Below are positions 4,767 to 21,892 of a stretch of DNA of 64,000 bases, one piece after another. The position numbers and the translations under genes are program-made. The notes beneath the pieces are model-generated. The model made no database searches. It had not been told where the DNA came from and saw only the letters and a program-made list of their open reading frames with translations. Position 1 is the stretch's first letter. Each line of letters opens with the position of its first letter. This stretch comes from Candidatus Marinacidobacterales bacterium (GTDB taxonomy: Bacteria > Acidobacteriota > Vicinamibacteria > Marinacidobacterales > SMYC01): positions 416,001 to 480,000 of the forward strand of contig CBDCYI010000004.1 in NCBI GenBank assembly GCA_965224085.1. The letters are read 5' to 3'.

Positions 4767-5219
4767 TCAGGCTGATGCGGCTCGTCTCAGCAATGCGATC
4801 TGTCCACCATGGTAAAGATTGTGTTGAACGACCCCGTGCAAAAGATGATAAACCGTCCCGCCAGTACCGATGACGCCGCTGTCGAGCCGGCTATCGTCGA
4901 GCTCGGCAAGTGTTTCCATCAGACGGACGTGGCTCGTTTCGAGCTCCTTCAAGAGCGTCGTCCATGCATCGGCGCCGTGGGGCCAGTCTTCCTCCGCAGG
5001 CAAATCGCTCCCCTCCCCGTTCACCCGGCGAATAGCTTCCTTCTCCCACGCCACGATATGAAGCACGAGCTCCCGTATCGAGTGCGCGTCCGCGATCGGC
5101 CGCGCCGACGCCGTGTCCGTGCCAACTCCCTCGAGAAGCTCCTTCAGTGACGGCCCGTGCCACGCGTCACCGCTATACGCGCGACGTAGCTGATCACGAA
5201 TCCTCTCCATCTCGCTCAT
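4767..5219 (-). CDS. DinB family protein
   Basis: AWHGPSL, HSIRELVLHI, QHNLYHGGQI His triad. Confidence 0.9.
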   Translation of the reverse strand: MSEMERIRDQLRRAYSGDAWHGPSLKELLEGVGTDTASARPIADAHSIRELVLHIVAWEKEAIRRVNGEGSDLPAEEDWPHGADAWTTLLKELETSHVRLMETLAELDDSRLDSGVIGTGGTVYHLLHGVVQHNLYHGGQIALLRRAASA

Positions 5220-6052
5220 ATGCGTTTCACCATCATGAGCGTCCGATCGTCGCTGGGCTCGCCGGGCGCGAAGCGCGCGAGCTGATCGGCAACGGTCGAA
5301 GCTATCACCTGCGCCGGCGCGTCGGGTTCGGTGTCAACCCAGCGAACGATGTGGCGTTCATCGAAAATATCGCCGGCACTGTTCTCGGCTTCAGTGAAAC
5401 CGTCGGAAAATAACGCCAAGACATCACCCGGGTCGAGCTGGACGCTCTTTTCGCCGTAAGTCGCATTCTCGAGAGCACCGAGCACGAGGCCCGTCGAGTC
5501 GAGCGTGCGCCACTCGCCGCAGGCGCGCCGGAGTAGCGGCGGAAGATGGCCGGCATTTGCGTAGCGCAGCTCCCCGCTATCGGCATCGAGACTCCCGTAA
5601 AAGACCGTTGCCAGTCGGCCTTCAGAGGCGCTGTCGAGAAAATACCGATTCGCTTTCTCGAGCACTGCCGCCGGCGACGACACCTCCGGCACGAGCGCTT
5701 TGAGCGAACCCTGAAGCCCGGTCCGGCGAAGCGCAGCGGGGATCCCCTTCCCCATCACGTCCCCAAGAAGCAGCGTGACACGGCTGCCCTCGGCGCGCAC
5801 ATCGTAGAAGTCACCACTGATTAGTCGTGACGCGCGGTAGTGCAGGCCGACTTCCCATCCGGGCAAGAGCGGGATCTGAGGCAGCAAAGCACGATCGACG
5901 CGCTGCACCTGGTTGAGGTCTTTTTGGAGCCGTTCTATTTCGGCCTGGGGCATGCAGTCGAGGCAAACTTCGCTCGTCGGATAGATCGAGACGAGCTCGG
6001 GTTCTACATGACCGTCGCATTGACGGCACGGATGTTCCAATACAGTCGCCAT
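5216..6052 (-). CDS. PP2C/SpoIIE (RsbU-like) phosphatase with N-terminal C4 zinc finger
   Basis: SGDFYD, GDVMGKG, NAGH, FSDGFTE, SDDRT. Likely start ATG 6052 (MATVLEHPCRQC); the ORF extension to 6208 reads through a mobile element. Confidence 0.9.
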   Translation of the reverse strand: MATVLEHPCRQCDGHVEPELVSIYPTSEVCLDCMPQAEIERLQKDLNQVQRVDRALLPQIPLLPGWEVGLHYRASRLISGDFYDVRAEGSRVTLLLGDVMGKGIPAALRRTGLQGSLKALVPEVSSPAAVLEKANRYFLDSASEGRLATVFYGSLDADSGELRYANAGHLPPLLRRACGEWRTLDSTGLVLGALENATYGEKSVQLDPGDVLALFSDGFTEAENSAGDIFDERHIVRWVDTEPDAPAQVIASTVADQLARFAPGEPSDDRTLMMVKRI

Positions 6053-6055
6053 TAG

Positions 6056-6238
6056 TGTCTCGTCCGGGGATGGTGGAAACCCCTCGCCTTCAGGCGAAGA
6101 AAAGATTGTCGATGTCCCCGAAGGGGACGAGACTCCCCCGACTGAAGTCGGGGGGTTGAGAATGAAGCGGGCGCATGAAGTCGACTTCCAGTCGACGCGC
6201 CCGCGCAATCCACCGGCTTAAGCCGGTGGTTGATTTAA
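6056..6238 (+). mobile_element. Non-autonomous IS200/IS605-type miniature element
   Basis: Starts after TTAG (6052-6055) with a left end closely matching the local IS200 left end; ends in hairpin CCACCGGC-TTAA-GCCGGTGG-TTG, like the IS200 right end; no coding content. Confidence 0.8.
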
Positions 6239-6271
6239 TTTCTCCTCTTGTTGATTAATGTTCGCGTCGTG

Positions 6272-6865
6272 CTAGTCCCCTGCGGGATTGATCCCTTCGA
6301 TCTCCATCAAGGCTTTCTTGATGTCCAAGCCGCCGGTGTAACCGCCCATGCCCCCGCCGGAAGCAACGACGCGGTGGCACGGAATGACGATGGCCACGGG
6401 GTTCTTGCCGAGCGCGTTGCCGACGGCGCGCTGAGCCTTCGGCCGCCCGATACGCTCGGCTACATCCGTATAGCACTCGCACTCGCCGAAACGGATCTCG
6501 TTCGCAGCTTCCAGCACTTGCCTTTGAAACGGCGTTCCCCATCGAATGTCGACCGGCAGCTGAAAACGCTTGCGCTTACCTTCGAAATATTCGACGAACT
6601 GACGGCGCTCGCGGTCGAGCTCGCTGCCCGCTTTTTCGGGCAAAAGCTCGCGTTTTTCGAGGTCGTTGACCAAAGCGTCCTCCGACCGTCGGAAGCTCGC
6701 GAGGCAGAGACCCTTTCGCGTTCTCGCCAGAAACATCTTGCCGAACGGCGCGTCGATCCAGCCGTAATGCGCGCGGACGGGGTCGAAGCTTCTCTTGAGC
6801 GCCGCGTGGGCTCGTTTCCATTCAGACGCGCTCGGCGTGGGAAGCTCGGGATTCGGCATCGTCAC
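6272..6865 (-). CDS. ogt: Methylated-DNA--protein-cysteine methyltransferase
   Basis: GTPFQRQV, RAVGNALGKNP, IPCHRV active site, GGYTGG. Confidence 0.93.
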   Translation of the reverse strand: MTMPNPELPTPSASEWKRAHAALKRSFDPVRAHYGWIDAPFGKMFLARTRKGLCLASFRRSEDALVNDLEKRELLPEKAGSELDRERRQFVEYFEGKRKRFQLPVDIRWGTPFQRQVLEAANEIRFGECECYTDVAERIGRPKAQRAVGNALGKNPVAIVIPCHRVVASGGGMGGYTGGLDIKKALMEIEGINPAGD

Positions 6866-6878
6866 AATTCCTCTCGTC

Positions 6879-7377
6879 TTAGTCCATTAGTCCATAGCGG
6901 ACTTTCTTCATGGCTTGGTAAACCTGCGCCCGCGCGTTTCTCCGGGCTCATACCCAGAATCTCGGCGACGTCACGATACGGCAGACCCTCGTATTTCTTG
7001 AGGAGAAGCGCCGAGCGCTGCCGCGGCGTGAGGTCACGAACAACGTGGCCCAGCGCTCGCGCGAGCCGCCGTGTCTCCGATAGATCGTCGGGGTGGCCGT
7101 TCGCATCGTGGACGTCCGCCGCAGCATCGATGGGAGAGGTCCCTCGCAATTGTTCGGATCGAAAATGGTTCAGCACTTGGCGATGCGCGATGCGGTAGAG
7201 CCAGGCGCGGTGATTGGCGTCTTCCGGCAGTCGCGGAAACGCTTTGAATGCCCGCAGAAACGTATCTTGCAGCAGGTCGGCGGCGTCATCGGGATTCCCC
7301 GTCATCCGGAAGGCGTAGCGGTAGATTTCCTTCTGGTAGCTTTCGAGAATCTCTGCGAAACGCGCTTTTCCGGGCAT
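6879..7377 (-). CDS. ECF RNA polymerase sigma factor, frameshift near the C-terminus
   Basis: DAADLLQDTFLRAF, AWLYRIA, region 4 LTPRQRSALLLKKYEGLPYRDVAEILG; removing one base near 6940 restores NARAQVYQAMKKVR. Confidence 0.85.
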
Positions 7378-7668
7378 CTAGTCTGTATAACACCCGAGAA
7401 CACGAAATGTGAAAAAGCTCGGGACAAGTATTTTAGTCTTTCGCTTCTAGACCTAAGGTCGAGAACTCAGCCCAGAGGTAGCGAAGCTGTCATCTGGGGC
7501 AGTCAGGCGCATGAATTTGAGTCAGCCGATCTCCCTGTAAAGGGAAGGGAATGATGCCTTTTCGTGGTCTTTCGTGACCCTTCTTTGCTTCTTCGTAATC
7601 AGCAGGTCGGGTGCTCAGAATTTGCTGCGGTTGCCCGTGACAACTACTAGGACGAGGCCCAGCTAGAG

Positions 7669-17992: not shown

Positions 17993-18051
17993 GAATTGCG
18001 GCTCGAACGATCGTGGCATTACATGCCTCCAGGTTGTGTTGGCGGGCTAAA

Positions 18052-18592
18052 GTGAACAACCACCGCCTAGAAGGCGGTGGCTTCAAGGGCTGTCAATTGG
18101 AAATTGACTGTCGTCGTGAAGAGGCTCGCCATCCTGGGAGTCTATGTACTCCTTTACCATCTCGTCCGTTATGCTTCCTGAACTCACCGCCAGATATCCT
18201 CGGGCCCAGAAGTGCCGGCCCCAAAACTTCTTCCTCAGGTGAGCAAACTCCTGAAGGAGTACTCGGGAGCTTATTCCTTTTAGCCACTGCACGATCGTAC
18301 TCAAGGTCCTGGTGTGGTCGGTAGGATACGAACACGTGGACGTGGTCGCGTGCAACCTTACCCGAGATTATGTGCAGCTCATGTTCCATCGCAATCTGAC
18401 GAATCAGATCGCGCACACGAACCGCTACTGGACCGATCAAAACCTTTTTACGATATTTCGGTATCCAAACGATGTGCGCTTTTAGGTCCGTTTTTGTGTG
18501 CGCTCCGTGCCTGTAGTGACGCACGCGACCACAATACCACGATCTTCTCTTCGCCTAAAGGCGAGGGGTTTCGACCATCCCCGGAAGAGACA
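18052..18592 (-). mobile_element. tnpA: IS200/IS605 family IS (tnpA only), copy 1; tnpA frameshifted
   Basis: Near-identical to copy 2, with an extra A at ~18304; left end follows TTAG, right end terminates in TCAC; subterminal hairpins at both ends. Confidence 0.93.
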
Positions 18593-18687: not shown

Positions 18688-19755
18688 ATGCGGCTTGCCA
18701 GCATGATCCACGCAATCGATCTCCACTGCTGTGGAGAGCCAGGCCGGGTCATCGTGGGCGGCGTACGCGATGTTCCCGGCAACACGATGTTCGAGAAAAA
18801 GAACTATCTGGAGACGAAAGGCGACGACCTCCGCAAACGGATGCTTCGCGAACCGCGCGGATTCCCCGCGGCGAACTGCAACCTGATCCTGCCGCCTACT
18901 TTGCCTGAAGCTGACGCGGGCTACGTCATCATGGAACAGACCGAGTACCCGCCGATGTCGGGAACGAACACGATTTGCGTCACGACAGCACTCATCGAGA
19001 CCGGCATGGTGCCGGTAGAAGAGCCAATCACCAAATTGCTACTGGAATCACCCGCGGGTCCGATCTCGGTGACTGCGGAAGTTCACAACAGCAAGGTCAA
19101 GCGCGTGACGTTCGAGAACCAGCCGGCATTCGCCGTACACCTGGACGCCCCGCTCGAAGTGCCCGAGCTGGGTACGGTAACGGTCGATGTTTCCTACGGA
19201 GGCATGTTTTATGTCATCGCCGATGGAACACAGTTCGGGCTGCGAATGACTGCAGACGAAGGCCGCGACATCGTTCGCATCGGCGAGATGATCAAGGCGG
19301 CGGCCGCGGAGACGTTTCCCGTCGCACATCCTGACAACCCCGAGATTCGTGGCATCACCATCGCCCAGCTTTCCGGACCGCCAATGAACCCCGCCGCCAC
19401 GGCCAAAAACGCCGTGATCGTCTCGACCGGCGTCCTCGACTGGGACAAACCCTCGTCCTGGACAGGGGCGCTCGATCGTTCGCCTTGCGGCACCGGTACT
19501 TGCGCCAAGATGGCGGCCTTGCACGCCAAGGGGTTGCTGCCCTTGAACGAGGATTTCCATCACGAGGGCCCCCTGGGCACGCTGTTTACCGGCAGATTGA
19601 TGCGGGAGACGAAGGTCGGAGATTACGACGCCGTGGTCGCCACTTTGCGCGGCCAGGCGTGGATCACAGGGTTCGCCCAATACGTCGTCGATCCGGAAGA
19701 CCCGTTCCCCAACGGATTCACCGTCGGGGACATTTGGGGATCGCAGCAGAAGTGA
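18688..19755 (+). CDS. Proline racemase/hydroxyproline epimerase family protein
   Basis: HCCGEPGR, MLREPRG, PPMSGTN, DRSPCGTGT. Confidence 0.92.
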   Translation: MRLASMIHAIDLHCCGEPGRVIVGGVRDVPGNTMFEKKNYLETKGDDLRKRMLREPRGFPAANCNLILPPTLPEADAGYVIMEQTEYPPMSGTNTICVTTALIETGMVPVEEPITKLLLESPAGPISVTAEVHNSKVKRVTFENQPAFAVHLDAPLEVPELGTVTVDVSYGGMFYVIADGTQFGLRMTADEGRDIVRIGEMIKAAAAETFPVAHPDNPEIRGITIAQLSGPPMNPAATAKNAVIVSTGVLDWDKPSSWTGALDRSPCGTGTCAKMAALHAKGLLPLNEDFHHEGPLGTLFTGRLMRETKVGDYDAVVATLRGQAWITGFAQYVVDPEDPFPNGFTVGDIWGSQQK

Positions 19756-20291
19756 ACAACCACCGCCTAGAAGGCGGTGGCTTCAAGGGCTGTCAATTGG
19801 AAATTGACTGTCGTCGTGAAGAGGCTCGCCATCCTGGGAGTCTATGTACTCCTTTACCATCTCGTCCGTTATGCTTCCTGAACTCACCGCCAGATATCCT
19901 CGGGCCCAGAAGTGCCGGCCCCAAAACTTCTTCCTCAGGTGAGCAAACTCCTGAAGGAGTACTCGGGAGCTTATTCCTTTTAGCCACTGCACGATCGTAC
20001 TCAGGTCCTGGTGTGGTCGGTAGGATACGAACACGTGGACGTGGTCGCGTGCAACCTTACCCGAGATTATGTGCAGCTCATGTTCCATCGCGATCTGACG
20101 AATCAGATCGCGCACACGAACCGCTACTGGACCGATCAAAACCTTTTTACGATATTTCGGTATCCAAACGATGTGCGCTTTTAGGTCCGTTTTCGTGTGC
20201 GCTCCGTGCCTGTAGTGACGCACGCGACCACAATACCACGATCTTCTCTTCGCCTAAAGGCGAGGGGTTTCGACCATCCCCGGAAGAGACA
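19752..20291 (-). mobile_element. IS200/IS605 family IS (tnpA only), copy 2
   Basis: 540 bp, TTAG target at 20292-20295 (minus strand), right end TCAC, terminal hairpins. Confidence 0.95.
19783..20223 (-). CDS. tnpA: Y1 HUH transposase TnpA
   Basis: HIVWIPKYR, DHVH (HUH), LKGISSR, FWARGY, KEYIDSQ catalytic Tyr. Confidence 0.95.
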   Translation of the reverse strand: MRHYRHGAHTKTDLKAHIVWIPKYRKKVLIGPVAVRVRDLIRQIAMEHELHIISGKVARDHVHVFVSYRPHQDLSTIVQWLKGISSRVLLQEFAHLRKKFWGRHFWARGYLAVSSGSITDEMVKEYIDSQDGEPLHDDSQFPIDSP

Positions 20292-21892
20292 CTAAGCGGA
20301 GTCCGCCTGCGTCCACGCTCCATCTATCTGCCGACGCTCCATCTATCTGCCGCCAGACCCCTCCGGGGTTGCGGTCGCGCAGCTCCGCAGGAAGCCGCGG
20401 CTCACGCACGTTGTCATAGCACTCGAGCATCGCGAATCGGCGAACCGAACCCGGAATGCCAACGGCCGTGAACCCGGGGTGACCCGTGGCCGGATACGGT
20501 CCCCCATGATTCATGGCGGGAGTCACCGCAACTCCAGTGGGCATCTTGTCGTTCAGGAGGCGCCCGACGCGTCTTCGAAGGTGGCGTTCCACACGAATGT
20601 AGAGCCCGTCATCCTCACCCTTCGTATCCGTGTAAATGGATCCGGTGAGATTGCCTTCGAAGCTGCTCACCACTTTCTCGAGCTCGTCCGCGTCTTTGGC
20701 CACCACGAACAAGTTGGAGTTCCCAAACGCTTCCGTTTGCAGCTTCTCCGGATCCCGAATGAACGCCTCACCGGTGGTCTTGACGAGCGTGTTCAGAAAA
20801 CGACAGCCGCTCCCATCGGCCTTCGAGCCTCCCGTTACGAGCGTCCCGCCCGCAGACTGGAGCGCTTCGACCGATTCGGCCAAGCTCTTCAAGCCAGAGA
20901 CGCCGAGCAGCGGAGTCGGCTTGGCTTTCTCGAAGCGACCGTGCATATCGGCGATGAACTGCTCCGCCTCCTCACCCTCCTGAAGCACGACGATGCCAGG
21001 ATTCGTACAGAACTGCCCCGTCCCCATGAGCGCAGAGGTTTGAAACTCCTCCGCAATCTCCCGGGCGCGCTCTTTCAAGGCGCCCGGCAATATGAATACC
21101 GGATTGATGCTACTCATCTCCAGGTAAATGGGCTTTCCTGCTGCATCGGCGGCGGCTTTCAATGTCAGCGCCGCCCAACGCGAGCCCGTATAGCCAGTCG
21201 CACCTATAAGAGGATGAGAAACGAGGTAAGCGCCGTCCTTGTGGTCGGTACGGTAGATCGTCTGGATGGTAGCAGCTGGAAGCCCGACCTCCTGAACCGC
21301 GGCAAAAGCTTCCGCCGCCAGGAGCTGGCTGGTTCGCGGATGACTCGGGTGCGCCTTGGCGATGACCGGGTTTCCGGCCGCAATGGCCGCTGCAAAATCA
21401 CCCCCGGCCACGCCGTTGAAGGCCAGCGGGAAATTGTTTGGGCCGAAGACAGCCACCGGCCCCCCCAGCGGACCAAACATCGAGCGGATATTGGTTTTCG
21501 TGTCGATCGTGGGCTCCGTCCAGCTGCGCTCGCGCCGCTACGGCCGCCTGGCGAAGCTGATTGCTGGTACGGGGTAGCTCGGCCTCGGCGAGCCGGGGCG
21601 AGAGAGGAAGCGCCGTCTCCAGGTGTGCGGCTTCCGCGATCTCCTCGGACCGTTCTTCGATGCGGTCGGCGTAACGATCCAGAAACTTGCCGATCGTCTC
21701 GGGTGAGACGTCGAACAGCGCGTCGGCAGCTGAGCTTCCGGCAACCAGCGCAGCGTCAACATCTTTCCGGCTGCTTACCGGATAGACGGGACCTATCGTT
21801 TCGCCCGTCGAGGGATTGATGGCTTGAAAAGTACCGGTCGCGTCCGCAGGCCGCCACTCTCCATCGATGAGTACTTTCTCCGTTTCCGTCAT
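20292..21892 (-). pseudogene. NADP-dependent aldehyde dehydrogenase (alpha-ketoglutaric semialdehyde dehydrogenase-like), frameshifted
   Basis: FGPNNFPLAF, EMSSINP, GQFCTNPG, PTGVAV, HGGPYPAT; frameshift near 21520-21545 and a 19-bp duplication at the 3' end. Confidence 0.85.

Follow-up and report, generated by a model that had tools for sequence, protein, structure and literature searches.

In the stretch of DNA analysed here (the window, 64,000 nucleotides, G000:C4:416001-480000), a 183-bp non-coding element, related to IS200 and lacking a transposase, separates the Shine-Dalgarno (SD) motif of a PP2C-type phosphatase gene from its start codon (Table 1). The element is probably an IS200 derivative of the PATE type, recently inserted 3' of a TTAG tetranucleotide and generating a loss-of-expression or hypomorphic allele of the phosphatase gene. 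Its location between SD and ATG is an ordinary outcome of where IS200-type transposons insert, and no sign of a switch was found. A sequence-only reading of the same DNA had pointed to an IS200-derived element wedged between a ribosome binding site and its ATG, and had proposed that an intact TnpA encoded in the window might operate it as a switch. The IS200 origin, the position relative to SD and ATG and the intact TnpA were all borne out, whereas the TnpA-operated switch was not supported.

Table 1. Coordinates in the window of the features discussed in the text.
Feature	Position	Strand	Remarks
DinB_2 family gene	4767..5219	-	start overlaps phosphatase stop by 4 nt
PP2C/SpoIIE-type phosphatase, 278 aa, intact ORF	5216..6052	-	Pfam PF07228, E 3.4e-47
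TTAG target tetranucleotide	6052..6055	+	first T common to minus-strand start codon (CTA-ATG)
Non-autonomous IS200/IS605-type element, PATE-like, 183 bp	6056..6238	+	boundaries +/-1 nt; no similarity past ends
Left-end segment homologous to family-1 IS200 left end	6056..6109	+	53/58 including TTAG
Left subterminal imperfect hairpin CTCGCC-TTCA-GGCGA(A)G, bulged A	6083..6099	+	also in IS200 families 1 and 2
Core, three hairpins (6114-6128, 6135-6154, 6167-6204)	6114..6204	+	unrelated to tnpA
Right subterminal hairpin, 8-bp stem	6210..6229	+	compensatory changes relative to IS200 family 1 and the G002 copy
Right-end tail TTGATTTAA, next base T	6230..6238	+	T in 6/6 true mini-type right ends
Orphaned Shine-Dalgarno motif AAGAGGAG, 189 nt from ATG	6242..6249	-	6 nt from ATG in G001-G003 and L030-L032
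O6-methylguanine-DNA methyltransferase (Ogt), co-directional, upstream	6272..6865	-	Pfam PF01035, PF02870
ECF sigma factor, first gene of co-directional cluster	6862..7377	-	Pfam Sigma70_r2, r4_2
Family-1 IS200 copy, tnpA (18093-18524) frameshifted by 1-nt insertion	18051..18592	-	
Full-length family-1 IS200, 541 bp, intact tnpA (19783-20223)	19751..20291	-	

The limits of the element were established by direct reading and by BLAST. On the plus strand, the TTAG is followed by TGTCTCGTCCGGGGATGG (the element itself starts with TGTCTCGTCC at 6056), then by the hairpin series, and finally by CCACCGGCTTAAGCCGGTGG and the tail TTGATTTAA that ends at 6238. Beyond this end come a T at 6239, two further T residues and CTCCTCTT (6242-6249), which reads AAGAGGAG on the minus strand (6249-6242) and is indeed the ribosome binding site that had been placed just outside the right end. 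Because a T is present at both junctions, the boundaries are ambiguous by 1 nt, 6056-6238 or 6057-6239, with an identical excision product in both cases. The excision span of 6056 to about 6238 given previously thus holds as a 183-bp segment, the 1-nt alternative being a small correction. When the right ends of family-1, family-3 and mini-element copies were compared, the T at the right junction varied among otherwise identical IS copies, indicating that the base 3' of the right end belongs to the flank and that the preferred target is therefore TTAG^T. A T followed the right end in 35 of 40 family-1, 11 of 12 family-3 and 6 of 6 mini-type copies. At C5:1919324-1920410, two family-1 IS200 copies are arranged head to tail with a single T common at the junction of right and left ends, an arrangement that resembles an integrated circle junction; this single common T is compatible with either boundary.

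Comparison with empty sites revealed no target duplication around the element. Its two ends, TGTCTC... and ...TTGATTTAA, do not form terminal inverted repeats, and palindromes lie near both of them. At 183 bp the element is below transposase-coding size, and the sole long reading frame through it is an in-frame upstream extension of the phosphatase ORF. An N-terminally extended phosphatase starting from the TTG at 6208 (330-aa ORF) was rejected, as this start has no usable SD and falls inside the right hairpin, and as the extension is absent from all relatives.

The relationship to IS200 was apparent at both ends. BLAST of positions 6052-6250 against the 6.87-Mb genome aligned the left end with about 35 IS200 copies at 53 of 58 nt (91.4%, E 1.9e-16), including both copies in the window (C4:434539-434596 and C4:436238-436295), in agreement with the left-end match reported beforehand. 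The BLAST similarity to the 541-bp IS200 was confined to this left end, the core being unrelated to tnpA. The right hairpin had been described as a covarying version of that of IS200, and this was confirmed: it reads CCACCGGC-TTAA-GCCGGTGG (6210-6229) where IS200 has CCACCGCC-TTCTA-GGCGGTGG, with one compensatory pair. The copy found in a sister species (G002) carries a second compensatory pair, CCCCCGGC/GCCGGGGG, so that among the three sequences two stem positions are altered, each together with its partner, and pairing is preserved. In its right-end tail and hairpin the element differs from every full-length IS200 family in the genome, and the assignment of a TnpA to it is therefore presumptive.

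Candidate transposases are abundant in this genome. Pfam Y1_Tnp (PF01797) gave 76 matches, mainly from three IS200 families (family 1, 26 full-length; family 2, 9; family 3, 8). The product of the tnpA gene at 19783-20223, reported as intact by the sequence-only reading, is indeed complete: it comprises 146 aa, covers positions 2-121 of the 121 of the Y1_Tnp profile (E 3e-40) and contains the HVH motif and the Tyr residue. It also matched the solved TnpA structures of IS608 and ISDra2 (PDB 2a6m, 2vhg and 2xm3) with E about 1e-22. With 26 full-length tnpA matches, excision of the element by a resident TnpA is possible in principle. Between 18051 and 20291, the two family-1 copies of the window, one frameshifted and one intact, are in direct orientation and flank a proline racemase gene (18688-19755), the TGA stop codon of which falls inside the right end of the second copy. 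On the other side, an aldehyde dehydrogenase ORF (20254-21480, minus strand) runs into the IS200 left end at 20291, and its Pfam match begins only at profile position 126; this ORF is probably disrupted at both ends.

Genome BLAST detected five copies of the mini-element and one 25-bp remnant. A full copy at an unrelated locus (C11:1272929-1273111) is 100% identical to that of the window. The copy at C4:647708-647915 contains two 10-nt tandem duplications, located in the left and right hairpins, and the one at C5:322171-322335 has a truncated left end and a 10-nt tandem duplication in the right hairpin only; the last, at C5:1186416-1186524, is shorter, with about 100 bp. In the "terminal-only" remnant (C4:157336-157360), the left end is reduced to its first 15 nt, which run directly into the right-end tail, and the adjoining tetranucleotide is TCAG, not TTAG. 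A seventh match to the right-end pattern, at C9:510499, was not counted, there being no element sequence upstream of it. Similarity between copies stops exactly at the element ends, indicating that they arose by transposition and not by segmental duplication. G002 contains one copy, 95% identical, at a non-orthologous site; only one flank of this copy has a counterpart in G000, and no orthologous insertion common to the two genomes was found. G001 has no copy, and G003 and G004 gave left-end matches only. The mobility of the element is thus documented by two identical copies at unrelated loci, by the non-orthologous copy of G002 and by the occurrence, in different public runs, of occupied (X1, X3) and empty (X8) alleles.

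At the phosphatase locus, the first T of the TTAG at 6052-6055 is the last base of CAT, the complement of the minus-strand ATG (6052-6050), so that target and start codon overlap as had been claimed. Removing 6056-6238 leaves the SD, AAACTA and the ATG, a spacer of 6 nt, as the sequence-only reading had also stated. This arrangement is the one found in relatives. Alignment of the locus revealed an empty site in the congeners G001, G002 and G003, in which the end of the methyltransferase gene is contiguous with the phosphatase start and GAGAGGAGAAG is followed by CTA-ATG (TTA-ATG in G003). The same empty ancestral site is present in three metagenome contigs of 91-92% identity (L030-L032). More distant relatives keep the SD as GAGGAGG or GAGGAG in most cases; L040 has an SD-like GGAGG, read by eye, and L038 has GAGGA, with no start codon located. 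Relative to all relatives compared, G000 has the 183-bp element in addition and is missing 9 nt that make up codons 2-4 in the orthologues.

Public sequencing runs, compared as assembled contigs, confirmed this presence/absence polymorphism. In runs X1 and X3, contigs span the two junctions of the mini-element without a single difference, indicating that the insertion is real and not an assembly artefact. The empty allele was found among the contigs of X8 only, a run that has the coded organism label and study of X1 and comes from another sample. The X8 contig (6,699 nt) is identical to the window over 5600-6050; it then reads 10 other letters and rejoins the window at 6235, beyond which the match extends over only 24 nt. 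Read against the congeners, this allele is empty, still contains the 9 nt and reads TTAA at the position of the G000 TTAG. A virtual excision product of G000 would therefore differ from it by one base and a 9-nt indel and, since the deleted 9 nt could not be regained, the X8 allele is ancestral or sister to the occupied one and not its excision product. The empty X8 allele, set against the occupied G000 allele, indicates that the insertion is recent and polymorphic, and is no demonstration of switching. The 9-nt deletion adjoins the insertion (6050-6052), and both were always found together in the four runs compared. Deletion and base change are clustered at the insertion site with flanks otherwise identical, and could be compensatory. 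In run X9, a contig of low depth ends exactly at 6050 and is compatible with either allele or with both. The RNA-labelled runs X17-X21 contained a fraction of 0.04-0.15 of the words.

We then considered whether the position of the element calls for any particular explanation. Alignments indicated that IS200 families 1, 2 and 3 of G000 all insert 3' of TTAG. This tetranucleotide precedes 42 of the 46 left ends of families 1 and 2 and of the mini-element, and flanks family 3 as well; the copy count proposed with the sequence-only reading gave TTAG before all four mini-element copies with an intact left end. The genome (6.87 Mb, 60% GC) contains 8,794 TTAG sites on both strands. TTAG is far rarer than base composition predicts, and about 60 IS200-type elements depend on it. 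By a crude criterion for gene starts (a CTA-ATG that opens an ORF of at least 90 aa with a GC3 of at least 0.62), 107 of the 8,794 sites (1.2%) lie at such starts, corresponding to 3.0% of the 3,599 sites located at starts or outside the coding mask, a background estimate limited by the mask itself, which is a crude ORF and GC3 rule and over-calls genes. Fifty-five elements were paired by script, and the 51 of them flanked by TTAG were used to count insertions at starts. Three of these 51 lie at real CTA-ATG starts, for 0.6-1.5 expected (P = 0.02 when all TTAG sites are taken as background, P = 0.19 with non-coding sites).

The second of these cases is a full family-1 IS200 at C11:1391058 (locus L023, G000:C11:1389500-1392600), inserted between GGGAGAAA and the CTA-ATG of a gene for a DUF4870-like protein of 124 aa, an arrangement equivalent to that at the phosphatase gene. 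This site is empty in four of four congeners (loci L110-L113), where it reads GGAGAAAACT-ATG or GGAGAAACT-ATG. The third is a family-3 IS200 at C9:147434 (locus L024, G000:C9:145500-149000), directly 5' of the ATG of a DctM TRAP-transporter permease gene. A fourth candidate, at C4:900281, was rejected because its flank is TAAG and the Met codon is internal to a DUF169-like region. Target specificity, combined with the selective loss of intragenic insertions, is thus sufficient to explain the location of the mini-element. The orientation of the elements also appeared biased: 36 of 55 agree with the GC-skew rule, by which the active strand is on the lagging-strand template (one-sided P = 0.015), the skew being weak on some contigs. 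A preference of excision and insertion for the lagging-strand template is known for the IS200/IS605 family (PMC5027513). The mini-element at 6056-6238 disagrees with the rule and thus has the minority orientation.

These data bear on the proposal that the element is a reversible translational switch, in which excision and re-insertion by TnpA would toggle phosphatase and DinB, possibly under a stress that exposes single-stranded DNA. The components of such a system are in place, with intact ends, a TTAG target and 26 full-length tnpA matches, and the 100% identical second copy proves that the mini-element was recently mobile. Scarless excision and action in trans on transposase-less elements, both invoked by the sequence-only reading, are indeed established for the family, which has been used to flip an interrupted lacZ reporter (PMC10055086 and PMC5027513 for the former, PMC10055086 for the latter). 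Moreover, samples with a common organism label differ in whether the site is occupied, the neighbouring genes (ECF sigma factor, Ogt, PP2C and DinB) look stress-related, and the second and third IS200 insertions also lie at CTA-ATG starts. However, the only empty allele detected, that of X8, is not a donor joint: its extra 9 nt are common to the congeners, and it carries TTAA instead of TTAG. The exact excision product was on no contig of the four runs, which is weak evidence, as contigs drop rare variants. In addition, the position of the element is the one expected from target preference, its minority orientation is one that the family literature ties to poorer excision (PMC5027513), and re-insertion at the same site would have to select one target among 8,794. 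We therefore consider a switch, whether regulated or acting at the level of the population, unlikely.

The same doubt applies to a wider, genus-level version of this idea. In this genus, the layout GGAGAAA^CTA-ATG would be a common one for SD, spacer and start codon, and would contain the IS200 target (A^CTAA when read on the coding strand), so that IS200-type elements would repeatedly enter between SD and ATG. The PP2C, DUF4870-like and DctM insertions might then all be scarless, reversible OFF/ON translational alleles by which populations, with many active TnpA copies, would vary the expression of stress-response and transport genes. We hold this to be improbable.

The effect of the insertion on translation was approached by structure prediction. 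In the occupied allele, no GGAG, GAGG or AGGA is found within 25 nt of the phosphatase ATG. The sense-strand RNA from 6262 to 6030 is predicted to fold with -103 kcal/mol (z -6.6); in the predicted structure UUCAUUCUC pairs with the orphaned SD, and 4 nt separate the AUG from the end of a 9-bp stem, GUCUCGUCC/GGACGAGAC. Opening the region from -20 to +13 is predicted to cost 11.5 kcal/mol in the occupied allele and 7.2 at the natural empty site of G002. With the SD moved 189 nt away and a 9-bp stem beside the start, SD-dependent initiation would thus be strongly reduced. The 4-nt overlap between the DinB_2 start and the phosphatase stop suggests that the two genes are translationally coupled, and a strong drop in the translation of both is likely on these predictions. 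A scan of 5900-7600 for sigma-70-type promoters gave no site, and hence no sigma-70-like outward promoter.

The ORF of the phosphatase remains intact, with 91-94% identity to the congeneric orthologues, as expected if the insertion is very recent or if the gene is still in use. The element might accordingly be a near-neutral passenger that costs the cell little, the phosphatase being still adequately translated, either independently of the SD or by way of a tolerated hairpin array. SD-independent initiation at the phosphatase ATG is possible, three such insertions at gene starts survive in this one genome, and the RNA of the element is a tight hairpin stack. On the other hand, the SD is conserved in all relatives examined (five in one comparison, all 12 loci listed in another), which argues that it matters, and the start region is predicted to be more structured than in the empty site. 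We thus regard a nearly cost-free insertion as rather unlikely.

The strong predicted fold (the z of -6.6 given above) could also reflect a domesticated structured RNA, acting as a terminator or attenuator, as an mRNA stabiliser, as the carrier of an omega-RNA for TnpB, or as a repeat of the REP/RAYT type. PATEs of other genomes often carry omega-RNAs (PMC10055086). Against this, an Rfam scan of 5000-7500 gave no match at E <= 1, and the site is empty in all relatives compared. No terminator was predicted on the sense strand of the operon; the only terminator-like site in the mini-element is on the plus strand, antisense to the operon. The TnpB domain PF07282 had no match in the genome, and the omega-RNA possibility was dropped for this reason. 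As to RAYTs, these are single-copy genes, unlike the Y1 genes found here, which are multi-copy and each have their own left and right ends. A domesticated RNA thus appears very improbable.

The interpretation that we favour remains that of a recent insertion that impairs expression. The Y1 TnpA of resident IS200 copies would have mobilised the 183-bp transposase-less PATE in trans, and this PATE would have inserted 3' of a TTAG target, with TTAG^T preferred, that by chance was located in the A-rich stretch separating SD and ATG of the phosphatase gene. The phosphatase gene and the translationally coupled DinB gene would thereby have become a loss-of-expression or hypomorphic allele. Precise excision catalysed by TnpA could reverse this allele, as for any member of the family, and this would be an incidental property rather than a regulated switch.

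PATEs were defined in Haloquadratum walsbyi (PMC3119063) and have also been noted in Geobacillus stearothermophilus (PMC10055086). In every character compared with the definition of PMC3119063, the mini-element agrees with a PATE. It is too short for a transposase, has neither terminal inverted repeats nor a target duplication, and possesses near-terminal palindromes related to IS200/IS605-type elements of the same genome; its insertions differ between strains, and "terminal-only" remnants that have lost the core are known, here the 25-bp sequence at C4:157346. It differs in that its partner is a tnpA-only IS200, TnpB and omega-RNA being absent here, in that its core consists of hairpins unrelated to the parent instead of resulting from a simple internal deletion, and in that the family is small, with five copies and a remnant.

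Like IS200/IS605 elements such as IS608, ISDra2 and ISGst, the mini-element lies 3' of a fixed tetranucleotide, TTAG where IS608 uses TTAC, and has subterminal hairpins at both ends; the resident TnpA has an HUH motif and a Tyr and matches the IS608 and ISDra2 structures. Element orientation in the genome also appears biased with GC skew (the 36 of 55 above, the mini-element not among them). The right-end tail and hairpin, unlike those of every full-length family in G000, set the mini-element apart. Experiments on other members of the family have restored an interrupted gene by scarless excision (PMC10055086). A literature search, with supplementary tables outside its scope, yielded no report of an IS200 or PATE located between SD and start codon and acting as a switch. 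Reversible phase variation mediated by insertion sequences is illustrated by IS492 in the EPS genes of Pseudoalteromonas and by IS256 in the ica genes of Staphylococcus, systems in which a measurable exchange between ON and OFF alleles takes place inside clones. As in these systems, a mobile element that could leave precisely would interrupt expression at the phosphatase locus. In contrast to them, the empty allele seen here is ancestral, and the assembled contigs of four runs revealed no interconversion.

As it stands, the phosphatase locus is an ordinary insertion polymorphism, which would gain in importance only if the element excised often enough to be useful and expression differed between the alleles. 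It offers a natural substrate for testing whether a tnpA-only IS200 mobilises a PATE in trans and for measuring the cost of separating SD from ATG, with both the ancestral empty and the occupied alleles still present in public data. More generally, it provides a clean and dated case in which a single-strand (Y1) transposon is steered by its sequence-specific target into the translation-initiation regions of a GC-rich genome.
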